Assembly (NCBI GenBank): GCA_001767455.1
Contig: MELC01000005.1
Location: 4,139 to 68,138, forward strand
Length of the DNA stretch: 64,000 nt
Source of the DNA: Acidobacteria bacterium RIFCSPLOWO2_12_FULL_66_21
Lineage (GTDB): Bacteria; Acidobacteriota; Vicinamibacteria; Vicinamibacterales; 2-12-FULL-66-21
Direction of reading: 5' to 3'
Positions 370 through 60,321 of the stretch are shown piece by piece. A program made the position numbers and the translations under genes. The notes beneath the pieces were generated by a model. That model was given only the letters and a program-made list of their open reading frames with translations. It did not search any database and was not told the DNA's origin. Position 1 is the first letter of the stretch. Each line of letters begins with the position of its first letter.

Positions 370-458
370 TGGTGCCGGAGGTGGGAATCGAACCCACACG
401 GGGAGTGAACCCCACGGGATTTTGAGTCCCGCGCGTCTGCCAGTTTCACCACTCCGGC
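370..458 (-). tRNA. tRNA-Leu (anticodon CAA), class II with long variable arm, CCA encoded
   Basis: Reverse complement = GCCGGAGTGGTGAAACTGGCAGACGCGCGGGACTCAAAATCCCGTGGGGTTCACTCCCCGTGTGGGTTCGATTCCCACCTCCGGCACCA. It has a 7-bp acceptor stem GCCGGAG/CTCCGGC and an anticodon stem CGGGA/TCCCG with loop CTCAAAA. It also has a long variable stem-loop, a GGTTCGATTCC T-arm and a 3' CCA. Confidence 0.92.
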
Positions 459-498
459 CCGGAGAAAGGAATCCTCAGTATACCAACGGGAGAGCGCG

Positions 499-752
499 GA
501 GAAGATCTTCACCCGGAGACACGGAGCACACGGAGGATCATGGCGCTCCAAGCCCGTGGCTCGCGGCCGGTCTGGCCGCGCGAGCGCGGTGAGGTGGCCC
601 GAGATCCATAAACGCAAACACGCGTCGAGCGTAGGCGTGCTTGCGTTTGCGGATCTCAGGCCACCTCCGACGCCGGCCATGCTGCAAGGGCCGGCGCCAG
701 ACCGGCCGCCTCGTGACGTCTCCGTGCGCCTCCTTGACTTCGTGTCTCCGTG
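499..752. repeat. Structured composite repeat, copy A
   Basis: CACGGAG repeats (519-535) come first, then small GC hairpins and a central hairpin with arms 593-617 / 641-665. A second hairpin (CGCCGGCC..GGCCGGCG) follows, then CTCCGTG/CTTCGTG repeats (712-752). The architecture and orientation match copies B and C. Confidence 0.8.
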
Positions 753-3715: not shown

Positions 3716-3870
3716 CTCAGTCGATAGTCGATAGTCGATAGTCCAAGTCCAAGTCACAGTCCAAGCCACAGTCCAAGTCGAGTCCAAGTCAAAGTCGACG
3801 ACCTTGACTTGGACTTCGTGACCTTGGCTCCGTGACTTTGACTATCGACTATCGACTATCGACTGATACG
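3716..3870. repeat. Long imperfect hairpin built from tandem TCGATAG heptamers and GTCCAA-type hexamers
   Basis: Outer arms 3719-3743 (agtcgatagtcgatagtcgatagtc) and 3840-3864 (gactatcgactatcgactatcgact) are perfectly complementary over 25 nt. The inner GTCCAAGTCAA / TTGACTTGGAC segments pair again. The hairpin lies between the korB stop and the MFS gene. Confidence 0.9.
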
Positions 3871-5809: not shown

Positions 5810-6829
5810 GTGAGCACACTGAACGTCATCGTTCTCTACGATCGCTGGGACGAACCCGAGGAGCCCGGCGCCCCAGCCGACAAGGCGCCGCTGACGCGCA
5901 CGCTCGACAAGAAAGAAGTCGAAGAGGAAGTCGCCGAGGCGCTCGGCAAGCTGGGCCATCAGGCGGTCCTGCACGTACTGGACGGCAGCACCAAGAGCCT
6001 CCACGCGCTCGCGCGCATGGAGTGCGATCTCGTCTACAACCTCGCCGAGTCCTTTGGTGGCAGCGACACGGCCGACTATTGCATCGCCGCCTACCTCGAG
6101 CTGATCGGCAGGCGGATCACCGGGTCAGGCTCTCGCGGGCTGTTGTACAGCCAGGACAAGGCGACCGCGAAGAAGATCCTCGAGTTCCACGGCATCCACA
6201 CGCCCGTGTTCGCACGCTCCTATCGCGGGCGGCTCGATTTTTCGCACGACCTCGAGTTTCCGGTCATCGTCAAGCCGGCCCGTGAGGACGGATCGATCGG
6301 CATCGAGTTCAACAACGTCGTGTCGTCGATTCGCGAGCTGATGGAGCGGATCGACTGGCTCCATGCGAATTTCGACTCGCCCGTCCTCATCGAGGAGTAC
6401 GTGGAAGGGCGGGAGATGTACGTCGCGGTGATCGGCAACGACAACCCGACGGCGCTGCCGGTCATCGAGCTGGATCTCTCGAAGCTCCCCGAAGGGCGCC
6501 CGCGCATCGCGGGGGCGGAAGTGAAATGGGGCAAAGGCACACGCGCCTATCGCGACACGAAATCCGCCGTGGCCGAGGATCTGCCGGAAGAGGTTTCGGC
6601 GCTGCTCCAGCAGACGGCCGTCGCGGTCTTCCAGGCGCTGGAGTTGCGCGACTATGCGCGCATCGACATGCGGCTGCGGCCGGACGGCCGCGTCGCCGTG
6701 ATTGAGGCCAATCCCAATCCGTGGCTGGCTTCGAAGGCGGAATTTGCGATGGCCGCGCGCAAAGCGGGGCGGAATTACACACAGCTCATCGGGGAGATCA
6801 CCGATCTCGCCCTTGCGCGTTACGCCTGA
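5810..6829 (+). CDS. ATP-grasp enzyme, D-alanine--D-alanine ligase family
   Basis: Only the last 340 codons of the 982-aa track ORF (3881..6829) look real. The start is GTG 5810 (VSTLNVIVLYDRW...). ATP-grasp signatures include FPVIVKPAREDGSIGI, IEEYVEGREMYVAV and ARIDMRL...VIEANPNP. A TGGTATAAT box lies 10 nt upstream. Confidence 0.8.
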   Translation: MSTLNVIVLYDRWDEPEEPGAPADKAPLTRTLDKKEVEEEVAEALGKLGHQAVLHVLDGSTKSLHALARMECDLVYNLAESFGGSDTADYCIAAYLELIGRRITGSGSRGLLYSQDKATAKKILEFHGIHTPVFARSYRGRLDFSHDLEFPVIVKPAREDGSIGIEFNNVVSSIRELMERIDWLHANFDSPVLIEEYVEGREMYVAVIGNDNPTALPVIELDLSKLPEGRPRIAGAEVKWGKGTRAYRDTKSAVAEDLPEEVSALLQQTAVAVFQALELRDYARIDMRLRPDGRVAVIEANPNPWLASKAEFAMAARKAGRNYTQLIGEITDLALARYA

Positions 6830-7003
6830 CCTGCGCGCTCGGCCGGCCTCGTCTCCCGGCCTCGGGCATACAGCCGCAAGCCCTTTCGAATTAGACGGTT
6901 AACCTCCGGATCGCCCCGTGGCCGGCCGAAGTGCGCCGCGCGGCCGGCGCCAGAGGGAACCGCGCAAAAACGCGAAAAATCGGCCATTTTTGGCGGTTTG
7001 TCG

Positions 7004-7032
7004 TTGCCAGGCGCGGCTCCTTCGGCTATACT
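7004..7032 (+). promoter_or_regulatory. Sigma-70-type promoter of carD (TTGCCA-17-TATACT) with upstream A-tracts
   Basis: -35 TTGCCA is at 7004-09, the spacer is 17 bp and -10 TATACT is at 7027-32. A-rich, UP-like tracts lie at 6966-6995. The ~55-nt leader carries a GGGGGA Shine-Dalgarno. Confidence 0.65.
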
Positions 7033-7091
7033 TTAGGGACTGCTTACCGCGCGGCACACCTAGCCTACTCACCTTACTTAGTGGGGGACAT

Positions 7092-7670
7092 GTGACATTC
7101 GAGGTTGGTGACAAGGTCATTTACCCAAACCACGGACTCGGCGTCGTTCAAGGGATCGAAACCAAGACCATTCTCGGAACCACCTGCGGCTTTTACCATC
7201 TTCGGATGGTGGCCAACGAAACGACCGTCCTCGTGCCGGTCGATAACGTCGATGGCGTAGGCCTTCGCAGGGCCATCAACGACGCGGAGATAGAACGGCT
7301 GTTTTCGCTGCTCGGCGACGGCAAGATCGACAATCACCAGAACTGGAAAGGGCGTTTCAAGGACAACTCGGACCGGATGCGCACCGGCTCGATCTACGAC
7401 GTCGTGGAAGTCCTGAAGAGCCTGACGTTTCTGGCGCGCTCCAAGAACCTCTCGTTCCGCGAGAAGCGCATGCTCGATCGCGCGAAGTTCCTGGTGGTCT
7501 CGGAGATCACCGAGGTCTCGCATGAAGTGACGGCCGCGATCGAGGAGAAGGTCGAGCGCGCGCTCGAGCGCTGCTTCACGATGAAGAACCGCTCGATTGC
7601 CCGCGCGAAGGCCGCCAAGGCGACCGCGACCACGCGGGTGTCCGCGCGCCGCACGGCCAAAGCGTCGTAA
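7092..7670 (+). CDS. carD: CarD/CdnL-family RNA-polymerase-binding transcription regulator
   Basis: Start is GTG 7092, preceded by a GGGGGA Shine-Dalgarno. The N-terminus FEVGDKVIYPNHGLGVVQGIETKTILGTTCGFYHLRMV...TVLVPV is the CarD_TRCF RID domain. A strong promoter lies at 7004-7032. Confidence 0.9.
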   Translation: MTFEVGDKVIYPNHGLGVVQGIETKTILGTTCGFYHLRMVANETTVLVPVDNVDGVGLRRAINDAEIERLFSLLGDGKIDNHQNWKGRFKDNSDRMRTGSIYDVVEVLKSLTFLARSKNLSFREKRMLDRAKFLVVSEITEVSHEVTAAIEEKVERALERCFTMKNRSIARAKAAKATATTRVSARRTAKAS

Positions 7671-7687
7671 CCGGCCACCATCTCCGT

Positions 7688-8458
7688 ATGGCTTCGACAG
7701 AGGGCCAGGCACCTTCACGCAAGGTGGCGGGCCCTTTTGTCGTGCTGCGGTCGATCGCCACGTATGTCGCGATCGTCCTTTACGTGGCGCTCCTCGGGCC
7801 TCCCTGCCTCCTGATCGCGCTCGTGTTCGGCCGGCCGGGGGTGTTGTACCGCGTCGGCGATGCCGGCATCCGCATGGGCCTGTTCCTGAGCGGCATCACG
7901 CCGTCGGTCACCGGTCGCGAGCACATCCAGCGCGCCCGCCCCGCTGTCTACGCCGTGAATCACGCCAGCAACGTGGAGCCCCCGGTGGTCTTCAGCGCGC
8001 TCCACGAGCTGTTCCCGCGCCTTCGCATTCTGTACAAAGCCGAGCTCCGCAAGCTGCCTGTGCTCGTGCGCGCGTTCGATCTGGTGGGCTTCGTGCCGCT
8101 CGAGCGCGGGAACCGCGATCAGAGCCTGCCCGCGATCGATCGAGCCGTCGAGGGGCTGAAGGACGGCAACTCGTTCCTGATCTTTCCGGAAGGCACGCGC
8201 AGCCGCACCGGCGAGCTGCTGCCGTTCAAGAAGGGGGGCTTCATCATGGCGATCAAGGCCCAGGCCCCCATCATCCCGATTGCGATTCACGGGGCGCGCG
8301 AGGCGATGCGGAAGGGGAGTCCGCTGATCTTTCCTGTCCGCGTCAGGGTGCATATCGGAGAGCCGATCGACACCGCCGGCCTGACGCTCGACGATCGCGA
8401 CCGGCTCACCACGCTCGTCCGCTCCCGCATCGCCGCGCTGCTGGCGGGCATGAAATGA
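7688..8458 (+). CDS. plsC: 1-acyl-sn-glycerol-3-phosphate acyltransferase
   Basis: 256-aa ORF with an N-terminal TM segment. It carries the acyltransferase motifs NHASNVEP (HX4D-type block), FPEGTRS and IIPIAIHG. Confidence 0.85.
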   Translation: MASTEGQAPSRKVAGPFVVLRSIATYVAIVLYVALLGPPCLLIALVFGRPGVLYRVGDAGIRMGLFLSGITPSVTGREHIQRARPAVYAVNHASNVEPPVVFSALHELFPRLRILYKAELRKLPVLVRAFDLVGFVPLERGNRDQSLPAIDRAVEGLKDGNSFLIFPEGTRSRTGELLPFKKGGFIMAIKAQAPIIPIAIHGAREAMRKGSPLIFPVRVRVHIGEPIDTAGLTLDDRDRLTTLVRSRIAALLAGMK

Positions 8459-13653: not shown

Positions 13654-13795
13654 TTCCAGTTCCCGGCTTCCAGCTTCCAGCTTCCAGCTCCCGGCTTCCA
13701 GCTTCCAGCTCCCAGCTTCCAGCTTCCAGCTTCCAGCTTCCAGCGATGGCCGTGAACGACGATGCTGGGAGCTGGAAACGGGCAACTGGAAGCTG
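13654..13795. repeat. CCAGCTT heptamer array (~13 units) with a short complementary arm
   Basis: A tandem CCAGCTT/CCGGCTT/CCAGCTC run spans 13654-13744. The arm gctgggagctggaaacgggcaactggaagctg (13764-13795) can fold back on it. The block lies between the dehydrogenase stop and the fadD promoter. Confidence 0.9.
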
Positions 13796-13798
13796 CAA

Positions 13799-13804
13799 TA
13801 CAAT
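13799..13804 (+). promoter_or_regulatory. -10 box TACAAT, 6 nt before fadD GTG 13811 (leaderless spacing)
   Basis: tacaatcctcccGTG. The box lies immediately after the CCAGCTT array hairpin. Confidence 0.55.
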
Positions 13805-13810
13805 CCTCCC

Positions 13811-15625
13811 GTGTCACCCACCCCCGAGCCCGACATCACCACGATTGCGGATCTGCCGTTCCACGCCATGGGGCGGTTTCCGGGCGCGGTCGCGCTGGGG
13901 CGGTGCCGGGGCGACCAGATCGACCCGATGTCGAGCCAGGAGTTCTTCGAGCGGATCCGCGATCTGTCGCTCGGGTTCAGCGCCCTCGGCATGACGGCGG
14001 GGGACCGCGTGGCGATCGTGTCGGAGAGCCGGCCCGAGTGGCTGCTGAGCGACCTGGCAGTCATGACGGGCGGCGGCGTCACGGTCCCGATCTATCCGAC
14101 GCTGTCCTCGACGCAGGCTCGCTACATCCTCCAGGACTCGGGCGCGCGGCTGGCGGTCGTGTCCACGCGGTTGCAGCTCGAGAAGCTTCAGGAGATTCGA
14201 CATCACCTGCCGGCGCTCGAGGCGATCGCCGTGATGGATCCGGCGGCGGCGCACGCCTCGGTCGTGTCGCTCGAGGACGTCCAGCAGCGAGGCCATGCGC
14301 GCATGGTCGCGGAATGGGGCGCCGCCCGCGAGTTTCGCGATCGATCTCGCGCGATCGCGCCGGGCGACCTCGCCACCATCATCTACACCTCCGGCACCAC
14401 CGGCGAGCCGAAGGGCGTGATGCTCTCGCACGGCAACCTCGTGGCGAACATGCGGGCGGCCTCGACCGTCCTCGATGTGTCGCACGAGGACGTGGCGCTG
14501 TCGTTCCTGCCGCTCAGCCATGCCTTCGAGCGCATGGTGGCGTTCGTCTATCTCATGACGGGCGTCACGATGATTTTCGCGGAGTCGTTCGACACGATCG
14601 GACGGGACATCGCGCTGGTCCGGCCGACGGTGCTCACCGGCGTGCCGCGCGTGTACGAGAAGATGCAGGCCCGCATCATGGAACGGGGGCAGGCCGGCCC
14701 ATTTGCGAAGGCCGCGCTGTTCCGGTGGGCGCTGAAGGTCGGGCTCGCGCGCGGGCGCGCCACCCTGCGCGGGAAGACTGTCGGGCCGCTCACGGCCCTT
14801 CAGGCCTCCATCGCCGACCGGCTCGTGTTCTCGAAGGTGCGCGAGGCGGTGGGAGGCCGGCTGCGGTTCGTCGTCTCGGGCAGCGCGCCGCTCGCCGACA
14901 GTGTCGCCGAGTTCTACCAGGCGATCCGCGTCCCCATCGTCGAAGGGTATGGCCTCACCGAGACGGCGCCGATCCTGACGGTCAACCCGCCGGACGCGCC
15001 GCGCGCGGGATCCGTCGGCCGCGCCGTTCCAGGCGTCGAGCTGCGCATCGCCGCCGACGGCGAGATCCTCGCCCGCGGCCCCAACATCATGAGCGGCTAC
15101 TACAACAAGCCGCAGGCCACCGCCGACGTGCTGAAGGACGGCTGGTTCCACACGGGCGACGTCGGCGCCATCGACGCCGACGGTTACCTGCGGATCACGG
15201 ATCGGAAGAAGGACATCCTGGTCACCTCCGGCGGAAAGAAGATCGCGCCGCAGCCGATCGAGTCGGTGCTGAAGCGGAGCCCGCTCGTCGCCGAAGCGAT
15301 GGTGCTCGGCGACCGCCGCAAGTTCGCCGCGGCGCTCATCGTGCCCGATTTCGCGGCGCTCGAGCGGCGGCTGAAGGATCTCGGCCGCCCGCCCGCCGCG
15401 CGGGCTGAGCTGGTGGTCCGTGCCGACGTCATCGCGCTGTATGAGGAGATCGTCGGCTCCCTCAACCGCGAACTGTCGCAGTTCGAGCGCATCAAGCGCT
15501 TCGCGCTGCTGCCGGCCGAGTTCACCGTCGATTCCGGCGAGCTCACGCCCACCATGAAGGTCAAGCGCAGGGCGGTCGAAGACCGGTGGCGCGAGCAGAT
15601 CGAGAAGATCTACGCGGATGGTTAG
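13811..15625 (+). CDS. fadD: Long-chain fatty acid--CoA ligase (AMP-dependent synthetase)
   Basis: 604-aa ORF with the AMP-binding motif IIYTSGTTGEPKGVMLSHGNL, plus EGYGLTETAP, WFHTGDVG and DRKKDILVTSGGKKIAPQPIE. Confidence 0.88.
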   Translation: MSPTPEPDITTIADLPFHAMGRFPGAVALGRCRGDQIDPMSSQEFFERIRDLSLGFSALGMTAGDRVAIVSESRPEWLLSDLAVMTGGGVTVPIYPTLSSTQARYILQDSGARLAVVSTRLQLEKLQEIRHHLPALEAIAVMDPAAAHASVVSLEDVQQRGHARMVAEWGAAREFRDRSRAIAPGDLATIIYTSGTTGEPKGVMLSHGNLVANMRAASTVLDVSHEDVALSFLPLSHAFERMVAFVYLMTGVTMIFAESFDTIGRDIALVRPTVLTGVPRVYEKMQARIMERGQAGPFAKAALFRWALKVGLARGRATLRGKTVGPLTALQASIADRLVFSKVREAVGGRLRFVVSGSAPLADSVAEFYQAIRVPIVEGYGLTETAPILTVNPPDAPRAGSVGRAVPGVELRIAADGEILARGPNIMSGYYNKPQATADVLKDGWFHTGDVGAIDADGYLRITDRKKDILVTSGGKKIAPQPIESVLKRSPLVAEAMVLGDRRKFAAALIVPDFAALERRLKDLGRPPAARAELVVRADVIALYEEIVGSLNRELSQFERIKRFALLPAEFTVDSGELTPTMKVKRRAVEDRWREQIEKIYADG

Positions 15626-15650
15626 TCGACAGCATTCACTGTCGCGCTGT

Positions 15651-15998
15651 CTTCGCCGATCACGATCTTCCGCACGAAGCCCACGAAGGTCACGAAGCTC
15701 ACGAAGACTGATCACGCTGATCGAGGAGGGCCAGCCGTCGGGTGGCGGGCGGGTCGCGCCGCGCTTCGCGCGGCGGGATACGCACCGATCCGCGTTCGCA
15801 AACACCCTTTGCTCATGTGGTGCTTGCGAACGTGGATCGGTGCGTATCCCACGACGCCGGCCGAAACGGCCGGCGCGCGACCCGATGTCAGCGGGACACC
15901 CTCGTTGGCTGGTTCTGTCTTCGTGTCCTTCGTGTCCTTGGTGTTCCTCGTGAGGTAAAGCCGTCGGCGCGTGCAGCGTGAGGGGGTACAGCGTGGAG
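15651..15998. repeat. Structured composite repeat, copy B
   Basis: The left end is cttcgccgatcacgatctt, followed by (CACGAAG)4 at 15673-15706 and a CGCCGCG-cttcg-CGCGGCG hairpin. The central hairpin has 27-nt arms 15775-15801 / 15824-15850 and a 22-nt apical region. A CGCCGGCC-gaaac-GGCCGGCG hairpin follows, then (CTTCGTG)n at 15916-15955 and the tail gccgtcggcgcgtgcagcgtga. Confidence 0.85.
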
Positions 15999-16016
15999 GC
16001 GTGCGGCCTTCGAGTG

Positions 16017-16952
16017 CTAGGCGGCGGGCGGCGGCTCGATGTGGATGATGGCGTCGGCGATCTGGGGATAGTGCGCCATCAGGCGATCCTTGACGACATG
16101 CGACAGGCGGTGCGCCTCGTAGAGCGGCATGTTCGGCGGCAGCCACACATGCAGGTCCAGGAACGTGTGGTCCGCTGAACCGCGCGACCGGATGTGGTGA
16201 CAGCCGCTCACCTCGGGGATCTCCATGACGACGCGGCGGATGTCGTCTTCCGCGATCACGACGCGGTCGGCGAGCACGCGCGAGGTGTCGCGGCCGATCT
16301 CCCAGCCCGTCCGCGCGATGAAGACCGCAATCACGAGCCCGCCCACCGAATCGAGGATCGGGTAGCCGAACCACACCGCCGCGAGCGAGACCAGCACGGC
16401 GCACGACGTGAACACATCGCTCTTCGTGTGCATCGCGTCGGCGAGCAGCAGCTCGCTGCTGAGCGCGTGCCCCGCGCGGCTCTCGTACCGCACGACGAGC
16501 AAGTTCACGACGAGCGTCGCGATCATCACGCCAAAGCTCAGGGAGGTGACCTGCGGCGCCGCGCCTCCACCCAGCCGGTTCAACGCGGCGCGAACGACCT
16601 CCAGCACCACGAACAACAGGAAGATGAAGATGCCGCCGGCCGCGAGCGTCTCGTACTTGCGGTGGCCGTAGGGGTGGTCCTGGTCTGGCGGCTTCAGCGA
16701 GGCGCGCAGCCCCACCATGCCCATGATGTTCGACGCCGAATCGGTGAGCGAGTGGAACCCGTCGGAAATGACGCTGACCGCGCCGGTCGCGTAACCCAGG
16801 ACGAGTTTCGCCCCGGCCACGGCCAGGTTGAGGAAGAGAACGCGAAGCAGGACGCGGGAGACCGCGCCATAACGATCGGTCACGGGAACATGGACGTGGA
16901 ACCCGGGCGCGCCGGCGGTCCCTAGAACACGCTGGCGTGCGTCAGCGGCCAC
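16017..16952 (-). CDS. Cation diffusion facilitator (CDF) family metal efflux transporter
   Basis: 311-aa ORF with SDGFHSLTDSASN and HTKSDVFTS metal-site motifs and a C-terminal cytoplasmic domain ending HIEPP. The annotated start overlaps lepB by 31 nt, so an internal GTG start is possible. Confidence 0.82.
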   Translation of the reverse strand: MAADARQRVLGTAGAPGFHVHVPVTDRYGAVSRVLLRVLFLNLAVAGAKLVLGYATGAVSVISDGFHSLTDSASNIMGMVGLRASLKPPDQDHPYGHRKYETLAAGGIFIFLLFVVLEVVRAALNRLGGGAAPQVTSLSFGVMIATLVVNLLVVRYESRAGHALSSELLLADAMHTKSDVFTSCAVLVSLAAVWFGYPILDSVGGLVIAVFIARTGWEIGRDTSRVLADRVVIAEDDIRRVVMEIPEVSGCHHIRSRGSADHTFLDLHVWLPPNMPLYEAHRLSHVVKDRLMAHYPQIADAIIHIEPPPAA

Positions 16953-20270: not shown

Positions 20271-20350
20271 TGGCGATTGGCGATTGGCGATTGGCGATTG
20301 ACGGATTGCCGATTGTCGATTGGCGATCGACGGGTTGACGATTGGCGATT
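20271..20350. repeat. GGCGATT heptamer array (~11 units, degenerate in the 3' half)
   Basis: tggcgat is repeated 4 times perfectly, followed by tgacgga/ttgccga/ttgtcga/ttggcga... variants. The array fills the whole nuoI-to-metallophosphoesterase spacer and contains that gene's TTG start. Confidence 0.9.
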
Positions 20351-21013
20351 TGGTTCGGCGCGCTCGGAGACGTCCACGGGGACTTCGGCAGCGTGCATCG
20401 CATCATGCGGCGCCACCCGGACATTCCGTTCTGGGTCTCGGTCGGGGACATTGCCGACGACGAGGGGCGGTACGAGCCGGTTGACGCGCCGCTCTACTGG
20501 ATCAAGGGGAACAACGAGAACTTCGACGCGATCGCCGAGGGCCGGCTTCCCGCGAACCTGCACTACCTTCCCAATGCGGCGCTGGTGACCGTCGGAGGCG
20601 TCCGGCTCGCCGGTCTCGGCGGGACCCTGGCGCCCACGTTGTACAACACTCCGGCGAACGAGCTGCCGCACCCGGAGAAGGGATCGGCGCGCGCGACCGG
20701 GCTGGCCGATCGGCGCCGGCATTTCGTGCGGGAGGAAGTCGAGCGGTGCAAGGCCCTCGAGCGGGTCGACCTGTTCCTGTCCCACGAGGCGCCGCGGCCG
20801 TTCCGGGTCGGGCGCATGGATGCCGGCAAGACGCCGATAAATGAGGTACTGGCGGCGATGAAGCCGCGGCTGCACCTGTTCGGCCATCATCATCGCTTCT
20901 CGGAGCAGGAGCGACAGGGGGTGCGCTCGGTCGGCCTCGACCTCGTGTCGAAGTCGTACCTGCTCGTGGACGCCCGGACGCTTGAGTACCATCTCGTGAC
21001 TCGTGACTCGTGA
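20342..21013 (+). CDS. Calcineurin-like metallophosphoesterase
   Basis: 223-aa ORF. Motifs GDVHGD, VGDIADD, GNNEN and LFGHHH. TTG start 20342 is the first possible start after in-frame TGA 20336-38 and sits inside a GGCGATT heptamer array. The stop sits inside a CGTGACT array. Confidence 0.78.
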   Translation: MAIWFGALGDVHGDFGSVHRIMRRHPDIPFWVSVGDIADDEGRYEPVDAPLYWIKGNNENFDAIAEGRLPANLHYLPNAALVTVGGVRLAGLGGTLAPTLYNTPANELPHPEKGSARATGLADRRRHFVREEVERCKALERVDLFLSHEAPRPFRVGRMDAGKTPINEVLAAMKPRLHLFGHHHRFSEQERQGVRSVGLDLVSKSYLLVDARTLEYHLVTRDS

Positions 21014-21150
21014 CTCGTGACTCGTGGCTCGTGACTCGTGACTCGTGACTCGTGACTCGTGGCTCGCAGTTCGTAGCTGAAGCTGGTAGCTGGAAGCTGG
21101 AAGCTGGAAGCTGGTAGCTGGTAGCTGGAAGCTGGTAGCTGGTAGCTGGA
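20994..21150. repeat. Back-to-back heptamer arrays: (CGTGACT)~9 then (GCTGGWA)~11
   Basis: CGTGACT/CGTGGCT units span 20994-21062 and contain the stop codon at 21011-13. GCTGGAA/GCTGGTA units (the complement of CCAGCTT) span 21071-21150 and end 2 nt before ATG 21153. Confidence 0.9.
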
Positions 21151-27593: not shown

Positions 27594-27597
27594 GTCA

Positions 27598-27685
27598 GTT
27601 TCCAGCTTCCAGCTTCCAGCTTCCAGCTTCCAGTTTCCAGCTTCCAGTTTCGAGTTGCGAGCTGCAGCATTCTACATTCTACGTT
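27598..27685. repeat. Mosaic heptamer array: (CCAGYTT)7 + (CGAGYTG)2 + (CTACRTT)2
   Basis: In-register 7-mers run from about 27602 to 27685. They fill the spacer between the glycosyltransferase stop (27679, inside the last unit) and the M24 peptidase start (27593). Confidence 0.88.
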
Positions 27686-48978: not shown

Positions 48979-49700
48979 CTTCGCCGATTACGATCTACAG
49001 CACGAAGACCACGAAGGACACAAAGGACACGAAGACGATCACGCCTGGTTGGTTTGGATCACGCTGTTGAGGGAGATCACGCTGCATGCACGGTCACGGT
49101 CCTTGGGCACAAAGCGCACGAAGGGCGCGAAGGACACGAAGACAGCAAAAAAGACAAATCGGCTCCCCTTCGAGATGCGCCGTCGAGCGCCGGCCGGCGT
49201 CACAGGACCAACGAGACCACAAAGGCAAACAGCCGCCGACCATGTGCTGCTTGCGTTTGCGGTCTCGCTGGTCCTGACCGCGCGCAAGCGCGCGGCTCGC
49301 CGGCGCACGCGAGGCGGGACGGTGGGACAGCGGACACCGAGACTGCCCAAAGAGAATGACAGTCTTCGTGAGCTTCGTGTGCTTGGTGGTCTTCGTGCGA
49401 TAACGCCGTCGGCGCGGGCAGCGACAGCGGAACAGCGGAACAGCGGGACACCGAGACTGCCCCAAGAGAATGACAGTCTTCGTGAGCTTCGTGAGCTTCG
49501 TGTGCTTGGTGGTCTTCGTGCGATAACGCCGTCGGCGCGGGCAGCGTGACAGCGGAACAGCGGGAGAGCGGGACACCGAGACTGCCCCAAGAGAATGACA
49601 GTCTTCGTGAGCTTCGTGTGCTTGGTGGTCTTCGTGCGATAACGCCGTCGGCGCGGGCAGCGTGACAGCGCGTTCAGCGGGACAGTGGAACAGTGGGACC
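48979..49700. repeat. Structured composite repeat, copy C, with right-hand module amplified three times
   Basis: The left end is cttcgccgattacgatcta, followed by CACGAAG runs and a central hairpin with arms 49205-49228 / 49251-49274. The right module is then repeated 3 times at 49332-49445, 49446-49570 and 49571-~49695. That module reads ggacaccgagactgcc..(CTTCGTG)n..gataacgccgtcggcgcgggcagcg..cagcgg. The block fills the convergent spacer between the C13-like and rhomboid genes. Confidence 0.88.
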
Positions 49701-50825: not shown

Positions 50826-52238
50826 GTGCTGGGTACGTGTCACTTCGTCCGGCCGGTGCGCGCGCTCGCGTGGGCGGCGGCCTTCGGCATCGGCATCGCG
50901 GCGCCGGGCCTGGCGCAGACCGCCACGGCCCCATCCACCGCGGCGGCAGCCAGCGCGGAGCAGCAGGCGGCAGACCCGCGGCAAATCCGCGCGGAACTGG
51001 ACAAGCTGCGCAAGGAGTTCGAAGCGGTGCGCGACTCGTACGGCGCGCGGCTCGCGGCGCTCGAGGCGAAGCTGGCCGGCGGCCCGCCGGCAGGCGGCGC
51101 GGCGCAACCCTCGACCGTGCCGGTTCCCGTCACGCCACCGGCGGAACCGGTGACGCCGCCGACCCAGCCGCCGCCGGCATCCGCGCAGCCCGGCGAGGTC
51201 CAGGTGCCACAGGGCGCGGCTGGCGCGGGCGGGCCTCAAGGCGCGCTGCCGGTCTATGGCAATGCGTCGGCGCTCTCGAAGATCTTCAACCCGGACATGG
51301 CGGTCATCGGCAACTTCCTTGGCGCGACCGGAAGCAACACAGTGGATCCTGCGCCGGTCCTGGAGATGAACGAAGCGGAAGTCACGCTCCAGGCGATCGT
51401 GGATCCGTATGCACGCGCGGACTTCTTCCTGTCGGCCACGCCCGAGGGCCTGGAGATCGAAGAAGGGTTCCTGACGCTGACGTCACTGCCGGGCGGCCTG
51501 CTCGCGAAAGTCGGGAAGTTCAAGGAGCAGTTCGGGAAGGTCAACACGCTGCACCCGCACGCGTTGTCGTGGGTGGATCAGCCGCTCGTCATGAAGAACC
51601 TGCTCGGCGGGGAAGAAGGCATGTCCGACTCGGGCGTGTCGGTTTCGAAACTGCTCCTCAACCCGTGGGTCTTCCTTGAAGCCACGGGTGAGGTGTTCCA
51701 GGGGAACGCCGGCGTCTTCCAGTCGCACAAGCGCCGCCAGGTGAGCTGGCTGGGACGGTTGCGCGGCTACCGCGACGTGACCGAAGCGACGAACCTCGAT
51801 GTGGGGCTGTCGTTCGCGCGCGGCCACAACGACGCGGGGCCGGACTTCACGACGCGGCTCTTCGGCGTCGACGCGACGGTGAGGTATCGTCCGCTGCAGC
51901 GCGCCATCTACCGCCGCTTCATGGGACGGACGGAGCTGATCTGGAGCCGCCGCGCGGAGGACGTGAGGAACGTCACCGCGTTCGGGATGTATGCGAGCGG
52001 CGACTACCAGTTCGCGCGCAGGTGGTTCGGGGGCGCGCGCTACGACCGTGCGGCGCGGGCATACGACTCGGCGCTCGTCGACAGCAGCGGCTCGCTCGTG
52101 CTGACCTACTGGCCGAGCGAGTTCAGCCAGGTCCGCGGGCAGTTGCGGCGGACGAAGTACGCGGAAGGCGTCATCGGCAACGAGGCGCTCTTCCAGTTCC
52201 TGTTCTCAATCGGCGCCCATGGCGCGCATGTGTTCTAG
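50826..52238 (+). CDS. Putative outer-membrane beta-barrel protein with N-terminal coiled coil
   Basis: Start is GTG 50826, 5 nt after AGGAGG. It has a signal peptide (...GIAAPGLAQ) and a coiled coil (IRAELDKLRKEFEAVRDSYGARLAALEAKL). The body has alternating beta-strand-like sequence and ends in an aromatic residue (..GAHVF). Confidence 0.65.
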   Translation: MLGTCHFVRPVRALAWAAAFGIGIAAPGLAQTATAPSTAAAASAEQQAADPRQIRAELDKLRKEFEAVRDSYGARLAALEAKLAGGPPAGGAAQPSTVPVPVTPPAEPVTPPTQPPPASAQPGEVQVPQGAAGAGGPQGALPVYGNASALSKIFNPDMAVIGNFLGATGSNTVDPAPVLEMNEAEVTLQAIVDPYARADFFLSATPEGLEIEEGFLTLTSLPGGLLAKVGKFKEQFGKVNTLHPHALSWVDQPLVMKNLLGGEEGMSDSGVSVSKLLLNPWVFLEATGEVFQGNAGVFQSHKRRQVSWLGRLRGYRDVTEATNLDVGLSFARGHNDAGPDFTTRLFGVDATVRYRPLQRAIYRRFMGRTELIWSRRAEDVRNVTAFGMYASGDYQFARRWFGGARYDRAARAYDSALVDSSGSLVLTYWPSEFSQVRGQLRRTKYAEGVIGNEALFQFLFSIGAHGAHVF

Positions 52239-52304
52239 CAGGCAGCAGGCAGCTGGCGGCTGGCAGCGTGACACACTGCAAGCTGCCTGCTGCATGCTGC
52301 CAGC
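52238..52304. repeat. GCAGGCA/GCTGGCR heptamer run forming a hairpin after the outer-membrane protein gene
   Basis: gcaggcagcaggcagc (52238-52253) pairs with gctgcctgctgc (52282-52293). gctggcagc (52259-67) pairs with gctgccagc (52296-304). This may act as a terminator or attenuator before znuA. Confidence 0.75.
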
Positions 52305-52331
52305 TGAGACGATACAGAAAGGCCCGGCATC

Positions 52332-54477: not shown

Positions 54478-56097
54478 ATGAACCGACCGCCTGACGGGGT
54501 TCGTCTGGAAGTCACCGACGCACTCGGCCGGCGCGTAGTGGCGATCGAGAAGCCCAATTTCGAGATCGGACGGCGCGAGACCAACGATCTGCGCCTCGCC
54601 GGCAGCGAAGTGTCTCGCGACCACGCGCAGATCGTGCTCGAAGGCTCCAAGTACGTGCTGCGCGATCGCAGCTCCCGCTACGGCACCTACGTGAACGGCG
54701 AGCAGGTCACCGAGCACGCGCTCGCCCACGGCGATCGCATCAGGCTGGGCCGCAGCGGCGGGGCCGAGATGGTGTTTCTCGTCGCCGACGGCGCGCCCGT
54801 TCCCGAGCGCTCGACCACCACCGCCATCGGCGACCTGCGTCAGATCGCCGCGCTCCTCGAAGGGCTCCGCGCGCTCGGCAGCGGCCGCGTGCTCGACGAC
54901 GTGCTGTCGCTGGTGCTCGATTCGGGCATCGACGTCAGCGGCGCCGAACGCGGGTTCATCATGCTGGCGACCGCGACCGGGGAGCTCGAATTCAAGATGG
55001 CGCGCAGCCGCGGCCACGGGTCGCTCTCCGGCAGCAGCTTCGCCACGAGCCGCAAGATTCCCGAAGAAGTGTTCCGCACGGGCGAAGCGCGCCTCGTCGC
55101 CGATCTCCTGGACGGCGAGCTGGCCAACGTGCACGTGGGCACGGTCGCGCTGGGCATCCGCAACGTGCTGTGCGTGCCGCTGCGCCTCGTCCGCTACGTG
55201 GACAAGGCGGCGGAAATCGGCGAGGACCGCCGGATCGGCGTGCTCTACCTGGACAGCCGCGAGAAGGGGTCGCTGCTCTCGAGCTCGACGCGCGCGGCGC
55301 TCGAGACCCTCGCCACCGAGGCGGCCGTCGCCATCGAGAACGCCCGGCTCTATCGCGAGACGATGGAGAAGGCGCGGATGGAGCAGGAGATGCGGATCGC
55401 CGCCGAGATCCAGCAGGCGCTCCTGCCCAAGACGGGGCGCATCGGATCGTTCTTCAGCGCCGCCGCCGCATCGCTGCCGTGCCGATCGATTGGGGGGGAC
55501 TTCTTCGACTACGTCGACCTGCCCGCGGGCGGCCTCGGCTTCGCGCTCGGCGACGTCGCGGGCAAAGGGCCGCCGGCCGCGCTGCTGAGCGCGATGATGC
55601 AGGGCATGTTCGCCGCGCAGGCGGCCAGCACGGACTCGCCGTCGCAGGCGATCACCCGCGTGAATCTGGCGTTGTACCGGCGGGGCATCGAGTCGCGGTT
55701 CGTGACGCTGATGTACGGCACGCTCCAGCCCGACGGGCGGCTGACCTACTGCAATGCGGGACACAACCCGCCGCTCGTGGTGGGCCAGTCCGGCGTGCGC
55801 CGCCTGGAATGCGGCGGCCCGATCGTGGGGCTGTTCGAGGCGGCCGCCTTCGACGAGGAGACGATCACGCTGTCGCCCGGCGACTGGCTGATTATCTTCA
55901 GCGACGGCGTCTCCGAAGCGATGTCCGCGTCGGGCGAGGAGTACGGCGAGCCGAGGATCGTGGAGTGCGTGTCGAAGAGCGCGTCGCTCGATCCGCAGCA
56001 GCTCCTCCAGGCGCTGTTCTCCGACGTGCGTCTGTTCACCACCGGCGCGGCGCAGAGCGACGACATCACCGCGATGGTGCTGCGCTACGGCACGTAG
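54478..56097 (+). CDS. FHA-GAF-PP2C (SpoIIE-type) serine/threonine phosphatase
   Basis: 539-aa ORF. The N-terminal FHA domain is FEIGRRETNDLRL..SEVSRDHAQI...LRDRSSRYGTYVNG. A central GAF-like region follows. The C-terminal PPM/SpoIIE domain is GGDFFDY...GDVAGKG...FSDGVSEA...DDITAMVL. Confidence 0.85.
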   Translation: MNRPPDGVRLEVTDALGRRVVAIEKPNFEIGRRETNDLRLAGSEVSRDHAQIVLEGSKYVLRDRSSRYGTYVNGEQVTEHALAHGDRIRLGRSGGAEMVFLVADGAPVPERSTTTAIGDLRQIAALLEGLRALGSGRVLDDVLSLVLDSGIDVSGAERGFIMLATATGELEFKMARSRGHGSLSGSSFATSRKIPEEVFRTGEARLVADLLDGELANVHVGTVALGIRNVLCVPLRLVRYVDKAAEIGEDRRIGVLYLDSREKGSLLSSSTRAALETLATEAAVAIENARLYRETMEKARMEQEMRIAAEIQQALLPKTGRIGSFFSAAAASLPCRSIGGDFFDYVDLPAGGLGFALGDVAGKGPPAALLSAMMQGMFAAQAASTDSPSQAITRVNLALYRRGIESRFVTLMYGTLQPDGRLTYCNAGHNPPLVVGQSGVRRLECGGPIVGLFEAAAFDEETITLSPGDWLIIFSDGVSEAMSASGEEYGEPRIVECVSKSASLDPQQLLQALFSDVRLFTTGAAQSDDITAMVLRYGT

Positions 56098-56098
56098 G

Positions 56099-56404
56099 AT
56101 GCGGCCGCTCCCGCGCGGCCATCGGCTGGCGGTGATCCTCTGGCTGGTCATCGGCCTCCTGGTCTGGAACGGCGTCTACGACCTGATCCTGGGCAAGGGG
56201 CTCAAGGAATACCTGTTCCGTGCCGCGCTGCACGAGGCCGGCCGCGGCCCCGCGATCACGATTGAATCGGTGATGGACGCCTGGCGGCTGTACGCGGTGT
56301 GGGTCGCGACCCTGTGGGCGTCGATCATCGTGCTTGCGGGGATGGTGACCATCAAGCTTGCGGGCCGACGGGAAGAGGCTGAAAACGTAGAACGTAGAAC
56401 GTAG
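56099..56404 (+). CDS. Small two-TM hypothetical membrane protein
   Basis: 101-aa ORF that starts 2 nt after the phosphatase stop. It has two hydrophobic helices. The C-terminal codons and the stop run into an AACGTAG heptamer array. Confidence 0.5.
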   Translation: MRPLPRGHRLAVILWLVIGLLVWNGVYDLILGKGLKEYLFRAALHEAGRGPAITIESVMDAWRLYAVWVATLWASIIVLAGMVTIKLAGRREEAENVERRT

Positions 56405-56508
56405 AATGCGGTCACGCTGTCGAGCCGCACCGAGCAGCCGCCTTCGCGCAAAGGCGCTTCGGCGAGCCCGGCCGAGCCCCGAGTAACGAGCTGCGAACTG
56501 CGAGCTGC
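56381..56508. repeat. (AACGTAG)3-4 array, unique GC-rich core, then (GAGCTGC/GAACTGC)3 array
   Basis: AACGTAG units span 56381-56408 and GAGCTGC GAACTGC GAGCTGC spans 56488-56508. The core ccgccttcgcgcaaaggcgcttcggcg resembles the reverse complement of the 33478 repeat. Confidence 0.85.
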
Positions 56509-56519
56509 GACAAGTATCT

Positions 56520-57728: not shown

Positions 57729-57766
57729 CATGCAGAGTTCTTGCTGCTGCCCGTGACCGGGCCTTC

Positions 57767-57788
57767 CACGTTCTACGTTCTCACATTC
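57767..57788. repeat. (CTACGTT)-type array, inverted relative to 56381-56408
   Basis: ccacgttctacgttctcacattc lies directly after the isopropylmalate-synthase-like gene. It is the complement of the AACGTAG family found upstream of that gene. Confidence 0.75.
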
Positions 57789-57794
57789 GACGTG

Positions 57795-60198: not shown

Positions 60199-60308
60199 GG
60201 AACGTAGAACGTAGAAGGCAGGATCGTCTTCGTGGACTTCGTGTCCTTCGCGATCTGTCCGAAAAGCCGTGGCCCGTCTCAGCGTGGTTCGAGTGCTTCT
60301 ACGTTTTA
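60199..60308. repeat. Mosaic element: (AACGTAG)2 + (CTTCGTG)3 + distal CTTCTACGTTTTA
   Basis: ggaacgtagaacgtagaag (60197-60216) is complementary to cttctacgtttta (60296-60308). In between lie gtcttcgtggacttcgtgtccttcgcg. The element sits between yacG and the Tmk-like gene pair. Confidence 0.8.
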
Positions 60309-60321
60309 CCGCCCCGCCGCG

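Follow-up and report, generated by a model that had tools for sequence, protein, structure and literature searches.

Extragenic palindromes of the REP, REPIN and BIME kinds are mobilised by RAYT (HUH tyrosine) transposases (Bertels and Rainey, 2011, PMC3116915; Nunvar, 2010, PMC2817692; Di Nocera, 2013, PMC3733652). The TIRYT tyrosine transposases, HUH enzymes too, have families of long terminal inverted repeats (TIRs), among them a sharply defined Acidobacteria group (PMC3733652). Here we describe a non-coding repeat family, with copies of about 250-720 bp, from a stretch of 64,000 nt of Acidobacteria bacterium RIFCSPLOWO2_12_FULL_66_21 (assembly GCA_001767455.1, contig MELC01000005.1, positions 4,139-68,138), referred to as the window. 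The window holds three copies, A (499-752), B (15651-15998) and C (48979-49700), and the repeat recurs in more than 100 contigs of soil metagenomes. The family is large, its core has the fold of a four-way junction with compensated Watson-Crick pairing, it looks alike on both strands and occurs as flip and flop isomers, it is associated with no gene family, and its repeat units are unstable in number. We read the element, with a probability of roughly 0.55, as a non-coding, non-autonomous dispersed DNA palindrome of the REP/REPIN/BIME/foldback kind in a high-GC lineage of Acidobacteriota type. Most likely it is a structured selfish or domesticated DNA repeat and not a new class of RNA. Neither Rfam 15 nor the papers that could be searched contained the family, which is apparently undescribed.

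Like REP, REPIN and BIME elements, the copies are extragenic, numerous and geneless, their inverted repeats fold as single-stranded hairpins whose arms are kept complementary, and they occur as singles, dimers and clusters in all kinds of intergenic gaps. Unlike in REPs, the tetranucleotide GTAG is present in only 3 of 63 cores and CTAC in 5 of 63, and CGTC, found in 47 of 63, is about as frequent as expected from composition and occupies no fixed column. The unit spans about 170-350 bp with a four-way junction, where a REP is a hairpin of 20-40 bp or a simple doublet, and it has flanking inverted tandem arrays and flip/flop isomers. Inverted units with compensatory pairing, as in REPINs, are present, but in the architecture of a four-way junction with arrays. 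The TIRs of TIRYT transposases share with our family the Acidobacteria host, long inverted repeats unrelated to GTAG REPs and a moderate abundance, and some of them are self-complementary; the comparison is by description only, and the motif GGGGWSAS of some TIRs is not a conserved column here. No TIRYT gene was seen adjoining any copy, either in the Pfam calls of the window (about 1-56 kb) or among the commonest families of 120 flanking open reading frames (ORFs).

Known bacterial miniature inverted-repeat transposable elements (MITEs) include Correia/NEMIS, ERIC, RUP and Nezha. Our copies resemble them in size range, terminal inverted repeats, intergenic position, folding into long hairpins and division into subfamilies; they differ in that neither a target-site duplication nor a parent insertion sequence was found, in the pairing constraint throughout the interior, and in ends built of tandem arrays with variable unit number. 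Foldback (FB) transposons have inverted terminal repeats composed of short tandem repeats of variable number, and the inverted terminal repeat (ITR) of the parvovirus AAV combines a tandem-repeat outer stem, bound by the HUH protein Rep, with two small internal hairpins and a flip/flop interior. We regard the likeness to FB elements and the AAV ITR as an analogy of mechanism and claim no membership; those are eukaryotic or viral, and the present element is chromosomal and internal and does not stand at a genome end. Direct repeats of the heptamer TAACTGA have been described in Beggiatoaceae, Cyanobacteria and Bacteroidetes (MacGregor, 2015, PMC4679880). They share with our family the short tandem heptamers in intergenic DNA and the occurrence of one heptamer across distant phyla without an evident transfer mechanism. 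The STRR sequences of cyanobacteria are similar intergenic heptamer repeats; repeats of both kinds often lie near start codons with no link to the function of the downstream gene, which we count as a further likeness. Their period is 7, whereas ours is 9 (heptamer plus two), and the module which we found across phyla is fixed at three units, has a conserved TT[C/A]AC flank and is usually an inverted pair forming a hairpin.

The three copies had been noticed in a sequence-only reading of the window, and both their coordinates and their arm sequences proved correct. When the window was searched with a covariance model of the central hairpin, exactly three matches were obtained, at 63-79 bits, with the runner-up at 15 bits. 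Close relatives of the copy B locus came from the same strain only (6 contigs, 100% identical over B), and the next homologues of the flanking acyl-CoA synthetase were about 75% identical; the metagenome collection was therefore scanned with a pattern of the central hairpin, GATCC-N7-CAAACR...YGCTTG-N7-GGATC, in which 7+7 stem positions, the loop and all flanks are left free. At least 118 loci matched. About 108 of them have complementary free N7 arms, in 61 different pairs, and about eight evident chance matches in coding DNA, all with unpaired arms, provided an internal control. Most of the true matches keep one order of parts: a purine-rich array, a GC hairpin, the long centre, a second GC hairpin and a complementary pyrimidine-rich array. 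The composite family with a common architecture is thus genuine, as proposed. The array motif varies by subfamily (CAGGAGA, CACCGACAA, CACGGAT, CGAAGAT, CGCAGAG, CACGGAG, CACGAAG, and also CACCGAC) while the core is kept, some subfamilies consist of near-identical copies, and the number of array units and the spacers differ between copies. Many of the matches lie at contig ends, as expected, since such repeats break assemblies. Among about 200 loci of other genomes and viral contigs (1.5 Mb), the covariance model of the central hairpin gave a single match, a complete composite copy in a metagenome-assembled genome (MAG) of Acidobacteriota (locus L081). Searches of Rfam, including the Acido-1 and Acido-Lenti-1 motifs, returned only tRNA matches at gathering threshold for the window and 18 loci, and only sub-threshold miRNA-precursor models on the long hairpin in E-value mode for copy B and seven loci, so that the family remained as unrecognised as it had first appeared. 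The consensus hairpin had no blastn match among the PLSDB plasmids, and searches of the searchable literature full texts with the heptamer and array 16-mers gave nothing relevant.

Pairing of the centre was examined in an alignment, A4, of 97 distinct central hairpins. Standard pairs made up 96.7% of the cells, and 25 of the 31 pairs changed on both sides. Compensatory cells numbered 776, compared to 248 in shuffles (0 of 500 shuffles reached 776), and only 33-42% of cells paired when the 3' partner was slid by 1-3 columns. Ten or eleven of the 31 pairs were set by the search pattern and are thus uninformative; the signal comes from the 21 pairs that the pattern leaves free, 12 of them basal pairs that lie outside it, and several of these 21 show all four Watson-Crick types in comparable numbers. 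The central stem therefore keeps its complementarity despite divergence in a large independent copy set, as had been claimed from three copies. A second stem, P1, is formed by the 9 nt before the first side hairpin and the 9 nt after the second. On average 8.73 of 9 positions were Watson-Crick paired with the own partner, compared to 5.82 +/- 0.15 of 9 when partners were swapped between copies, and the 63 copies comprised 53 distinct sequences. RNAalifold of 63 whole cores recovered both side hairpins and the centre. Since P1 covaries too, the core is a four-way junction of P1, a side hairpin K (CCGCGC-loop-GCGCGG), the long centre and a side hairpin S (GCCGGCC-loop-GGCCGGC). K and S are fixed modules, nearly invariant in sequence, and their stems for that reason neither support nor contradict pairing. 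The parts of the three copies, and a half module elsewhere in the window, are as follows.

15651-15669, + strand: conserved left end of copy B (CTTCGCCGATCACGATCTT), the same in copy C at 48979-48997
15673-15706, + strand: left array of copy B, 4 x CACGAAG with a 9-bp period
15751-15758, + strand: 5' strand of closing stem P1 of copy B (GGGTCGCG), partner at 15876-15883
15759-15773, + strand: side hairpin K of copy B (CCGCGC-TTC-GCGCGG)
15775-15850, + strand: long central hairpin of copy B, with a 27-bp basal/middle stem, an A.C mismatch in CAAAC/GCTTG and an apical extension
15855-15875, + strand: side hairpin S of copy B (CGCCGGCC-GAAAC-GGCCGGCG)
15876-15883, + strand: 3' strand of closing stem P1 of copy B (CGCGACCC)
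15919-15952, + strand: right array of copy B, CTTCGTG-type with a 9-bp period, complement of the left array
15953-15998, + strand: conserved right end of copy B (AGGTAAAGCCGTCGGCGCGTGCAGCG...), the same in copy C
499-752, + strand: copy A, with CACGGAG-type arrays at 520-535 and 720-752, K at 576-589, centre at 593-665 and S at 671-697
48979-49700 (whole copy), + strand: copy C, left half with left arrays at 49001-49034 and 49108-49141 and an S-type hairpin at about 49187-49198
Within the same copy, + strand: centre of copy C at 49205-49274 and its right half, with K at 49278-49295 and right arrays at 49364-49397, 49478-49520 and 49603-49636
49324-49692, + strand: 116-bp unit of copy C, repeated 3.1 times, each unit comprising the right array, the conserved right end and ACAGCGGA repeats
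60226-60255, - strand: isolated half module without a core, three CTTCGTG-type units with a 9-bp period, the third being CTTCGCG

The half module at 60226-60255 is nested between AACGTAG-type repeats. In copy B, all 27 positions of the central arms were found paired, one G.T among them, just as reported before. The order of modules is K-centre-S in copies A and B and S-centre-K in copy C; the covariation ascribed earlier to the downstream hairpin (A and B versus C) is therefore a swap of the K and S modules instead of a compensatory change. The central hairpin measures 30-35 bp and contains a fixed A.C mismatch in CAAAC/GCTTG. This mismatch (columns 36/61 of A4; 15802/15827 in copy B) was seen in copies A, B and C and also in L081, four copies which were found independently of the search pattern. 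It reads as a G.T wobble on the opposite strand. No other asymmetry of the central hairpin is fixed, and the orientation of the mismatch does not depend on the order of K and S. Of two mismatch positions said to be common to copies A and C, one is truly common, namely the pair adjoining GATCC, which is a polymorphic hot spot of the repeat family; the second was not. An enrichment of GATC in the copies was considered and rejected, with 5.5-17 per kb in the copies and 10 per kb in the window overall.

The motif CACGAAG was found 42 times in the window, compared to 9.4 expected, mostly within the three copies. Tandem Repeats Finder showed that the heptamer recurs every 9 bp (CACGAAG plus two variable bases), a period of 9 and not 7 bp, which corrects the earlier description as a run of heptamers. 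Left and right arrays are inverted complements over 40-42 nt with 83-92% complementarity, and together these two arrays of short purine-rich tandem repeats (period 8-9 bp) make an imperfect outer stem. Folded as RNA, copy B had a free energy of -208 kcal/mol for the + strand and -201 kcal/mol for the - strand, with z-scores relative to shuffles of -10.5 and -13.2, respectively; as DNA it reached -120 kcal/mol (z -10). The left and right arrays paired in every fold of copy B, and the suggestion that they could close the whole element was upheld.

The question of RNA or DNA was addressed by comparing the two strands. A functional RNA stem tolerates G.U and excludes A.C. Besides 1896 Watson-Crick cells, the pattern-free pairs contained 41 G.T/T.G, 56 A.C/C.A and 44 other cells, so that there is no wobble preference on either strand, which points to DNA. 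The orientation of the centre can be read from the CAAAC/GCTTG asymmetry and the loop. Thirty copies were K-centre-S and 29 S-centre-K, distinct cores oriented K-left numbered 31 versus 32, and both isomers were present within one near-identical subfamily (L250, L257). In co-directional gaps the CAAAC strand was sense in 16 copies and antisense in 13, and the K-to-S order was similarly divided, 11 versus 10. On the K-left strand, K loops are mostly TNC (TTC 27, TGC 10, others) and S loops mostly GNA (GCA 21, GGA 6, GAA 3, others); either strand thus reads as a purine-rich array, a TNC-loop hairpin, the centre, a GNA-loop hairpin and a pyrimidine-rich array. Hirao, Yoshizawa and co-workers reportedly found that GNA triloops closed by C-G, such as d(GCGAAGC), form exceptionally stable DNA mini-hairpins; the GNA triloop is no preferred loop of RNA. 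Around copy B no σ70-like promoter was found, and hairpin plus T-run terminators numbered 0 in 15400-16250 on both strands. Since the element looks alike on both strands, its most likely nature is that of a genomic DNA repeat similar to REPs or MITEs rather than an RNA gene. Given this strand symmetry, selection on a DNA fold or templating of one arm by the other could keep the arms complementary, as could selection of the classical RNA type. The sequence-only reading had proposed selection on a folded RNA or DNA; its retained pairing stands, whereas its leaning towards RNA gives way to five results which point to DNA.

Gene context was taken from a gene caller based on codon-position GC content, which replaced a naive ORF analysis confounded by spurious high-GC ORFs and by stops and starts (TAA/TGA; GTG) inside the conserved flank; for the window, gene calls on metagenome contigs 99.8-100% identical to it were used. 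They place all three copies strictly between genes, as previously stated. Copy A has tRNA-Leu(CAA) on one side and a pyruvate:ferredoxin oxidoreductase (POR/PFOR-family) gene on the other, and it is upstream of both. Copies B and C stand just 3' of gene ends, B between convergent acyl-CoA synthetase and cation-efflux genes, and C between a convergent unannotated ORF of 342 amino acids and a rhomboid gene. In the set of 108 copies, called genes were overlapped by 8, and 53 copies had a called gene on both sides; their gaps were co-directional in 29 cases, convergent in 14 and divergent in 10. The 120 flanking ORFs carried 150 Pfam families, each at most three times, and thus show no association with a gene family.

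Unit numbers differ even within one organism. The right module of copy C, 116 bp long, is repeated 3.1 times in the window (49324-49692) and occurs as a single unit in L598 (16776-16915), which is the same organism from another sample and 99.9% identical elsewhere; either the copy number truly varies or the short-read assembly collapsed the repeat. The heptamer array at 20294 is 7 bp (one unit) shorter in L001, and that at 21048 is 21 bp (three units) longer in L001 and L003, in assemblies otherwise 99.8-99.9% identical to the window; these unit changes are microsatellite-like slippage. A 10-kb contig of the same organism, L599, matches the window from 577 on, and its positions 1-121 (opposite window 456-576) are unrelated coding-like DNA joined exactly at hairpin K of copy A; either the assembly is chimeric across the repeat, or the DNA was rearranged at the element. 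In L056 (Vicinamibacterales MAG JBFWOG010000008), positions 6474-8000 hold at least seven tandem repeats of a unit of about 155 bp, each with a small CACGAAG/CTTCGTG hairpin and a conserved spacer, and resemble a larger version of the amplification in copy C.

Signs of mobility were sought in several ways. By eye, no direct repeat was seen at the ACAGGAG...CTCCTGT ends of six copies of one subfamily, and an automated test for target-site duplications gave chance-level repeats only, with boundaries made unreliable by short chance inverted matches. None of the 240 loci of fetched sequence contained an array-bounded, ORF-bearing unit. A recurrent spacing of 1577 bp between arrays was considered as a possible insertion sequence and rejected, as it was one phage tail-gene region in six contigs. 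Pfam calls in the window (about 1-56 kb) comprised housekeeping genes only, with no Y1/HUH gene or transposase, and no transposase family was prominent among the 25 commonest of the 150 families in the flanking ORFs. Of the outcomes that had been named as speaking against a structured family, namely lack of covariation in a larger copy set, an ordinary MITE with target-site duplications and a transposase-bearing parent, and a match to an Rfam or repeat family, none was observed.

The arms of the element have a wider distribution than its core. One genome per species was scanned for (CACGAAG-NN)x2-CACGAAG, and at least 120 loci matched, in Acidobacteriota/Vicinamibacterales, Planctomycetota, Verrucomicrobiota, Lentisphaerota, Chloroflexota, Desulfobacterota, Nitrospirota, Binatia, Methylomirabilota and Alpha-, Beta- and Gammaproteobacteria. 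The isolates Herpetosiphon aurantiacus DSM 785, Desulfobacter vibrioformis, Methylobacter luteus and Thioalkalivibrio denitrificans were included. Among the matches listed, viral contigs carry such arrays too, at up to six sites per 14 kb, 95% of the arrays have exactly three units, and the outward flank TT[C/A]AC shows A in 79% at position -2 and C in 87% at position -1. The spacers are purine-rich and not complementary between arms. An array followed by its reverse complement occurred 83 + 58 times, again among the matches listed, and the opposite order 11 + 1 times, so the usual form is an inverted pair in which the purine-rich arm is 5' on both strands. Two shuffled heptamers at period 9, used as a control, matched 55-62 viral loci, with 3 to more than 8 units, 0-2 inverted pairs and a flank below 0.5 bit; because shuffled heptamers also match often, our argument rests on unit number, flank and inverted pairing and not on counts. 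The CACGGAG motif of copy A resembled CACGAAG in these respects, having three units in 180 of 188 arrays, mostly solo, with a flank TTT[A/C]AC of 1.4-1.7 bit. The arm module was not found in Rfam or in the searched literature. Readings of the arrays as parS, attC, MuA sites or Shine-Dalgarno/anti-Shine-Dalgarno sequences are resemblances which no test supported. We tentatively consider that the module may be a sequence-specific signal common to many phyla and viruses and recognised by a widely conserved or horizontally spread protein, the composite element being the elaboration of one lineage; the recogniser could then be an enzyme that acts on DNA hairpins or a factor that targets mRNA leaders or intercistronic regions. 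If functional, (CACGRAG-NN)x3 would be a new and widely shared cis signal and would permit a direct search for its binding partner. In a phage tail-gene region, L127 (homologous viral contigs L152, L196, L202, L207 and L212), successive gaps between cistrons (76-215, 1186-1210 and 1682-1707) contain CACGAAG hairpins, a CGCGAAGA x3 array and a solo CACGAAG array. Only a few bases separate the end of the solo array from a GGAG and the likely GTG start of a twin-arginine-signal gene.

Other explanations of the composite element were weighed against these observations, and each of them runs counter to at least one result. A structured non-coding RNA, either a small RNA or a cis-acting element of an untranslated region, with the four-way junction under RNA selection, was the leaning of the sequence-only reading, and it would account for the very strong covariation of the centre and P1, the extreme folding z-scores, the conserved internal mismatch with the invariant K and S hairpins, and the position of copies B and C directly 3' of gene ends. 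We nevertheless regard it as unlikely: G.U does not exceed A.C (41 versus 56), K-centre-S and S-centre-K are equally common, the triloops are GNA and not RNA-type tetraloops, no promoter or terminator signal was seen around copy B, and no Rfam family matched. Nor is there an orientation bias to the flanking genes, which are unrelated to one another; a riboswitch-like element would keep a constant gene family and orientation, and we found at most three occurrences per Pfam family and ratios of 16:13 and 11:10. It does not seem any likelier that the element is a bidirectional terminator, an insulator or a protector of mRNA 3' ends, a hairpin cluster present in any transcript and spread because it is useful. 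The strand-symmetric design and the convergent genes around B and C agree with such a role, as do the simple CACGAAG hairpins, which lie mostly by gene ends (co-directional 55 and convergent 16 versus divergent 8; median 48 nt from the stop codon). Yet 10 of the 53 composite copies lie between divergent genes and copy A is upstream of both its neighbours, the GC hairpin plus T-run of an intrinsic terminator is absent around copy B, where no hairpin is followed by a T-run, and termination needs neither the invariance of K, S, GATCC and CAAAC/GCTTG nor arrays of 9-bp period.

The copies might also form an ordinary MITE, an internally deleted DDE insertion sequence whose arrays are its terminal inverted repeats and which moves by cut-and-paste with target-site duplication. 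Terminal inverted repeats, a size of 250-700 bp, intergenic position, high copy number, assembly breakage and subfamilies of near-identical copies would fit this, but the ends of the six copies inspected lack direct repeats, no ORF-bearing element bounded by arrays occurs in the fetched sequence, array units and spacers vary between copies, and the pairing constraint covers the whole interior and not the ends alone, which makes the explanation quite improbable. Least credible of all to us is a platform for proteins on double-stranded DNA, with the arrays as iterons for a nucleoid-associated, partition-like or regulatory protein and the hairpins as incidental palindromic operators. It draws on the conservation of the heptamers next to free 2-nt spacers that are non-complementary between arms, on the arrays elsewhere with exactly three units and a conserved flank, and on K and S being invariant palindromes; against it, the array motif differs by subfamily (CAGGAGA, CACCGAC, CACGGAT, others) while the core is kept, and double-stranded binding has no need of compensatory changes in P1 and in the basal stem of the centre.

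For a dispersed DNA palindrome of the REP/REPIN/BIME/foldback kind, the active form would be single-stranded DNA or an extruded cruciform, which either strand could form. The fold may serve as substrate of a trans-acting copying enzyme, for example a RAYT/TIRYT-like HUH tyrosine transposase, and the arrays would be arms that bind protein in the manner of iterons or close the stem. The centre might become inverted through recombination, or through a template switch, across its own arms. If the element also serves its host, for instance by insulating convergent genes or shielding the 3' ends of mRNA, that role would be secondary, as for REPs. Several points weigh against this interpretation. A mobilising enzyme was not found in the window (Pfam calls of about 1-56 kb) or among the prominent families of the flanking ORFs, and no empty site, target-site duplication or defined termini were established. 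It could just as well be an RNA-binding protein that recognises the conserved A.C mismatch and the invariant K and S, and the missing wobble excess is strong but not absolute evidence against an RNA structure. Near-identical copies show copying and not its mechanism; gene conversion among old copies could mimic them.

A phylum that is abundant in soil and little studied gains here a large family of structured repeats, whose anatomy of a four-way junction, iteron-like inverted arrays and a flip/flop centre is unlike REPs, BIMEs and classical MITEs. The family also gives a caution that strong covariation alone does not identify an RNA, as the covariation here is strictly Watson-Crick, strand-symmetric and flip/flop. 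Such repeats break metagenome assemblies, seen here as variable unit numbers and a possibly chimeric join, and the copies are candidate substrates for single-strand DNA enzymes.

Some minor features of the window lie outside the three copies. At 55779-55854 (+), ARAGORN calls a tRNA-Ser(GGA); the call is probably a false positive, because the Rfam tRNA model stays below its threshold there and the site is within a called FHA-GAF-SpoIIE gene. Arrays of true period 7 (or 6), not part of the element, occupy other intergenic gaps, at 3719-3864, 13654-13800, 20271-20350, 20993-21149, 27596-27682, 52237-52306, 56384-56510, 57764-57793 and 60200-60310. Their motifs include AGTCGAT, TTCCAGC x13, TGGCGAT x11, CTCGTGA x10.6, GTAGCTG x11 and AGCAGGC. 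Several of these arrays are inverted pairs which form hairpins, and some motifs are common to distant gaps in opposite orientation (13654-13744 versus 21079-21150).

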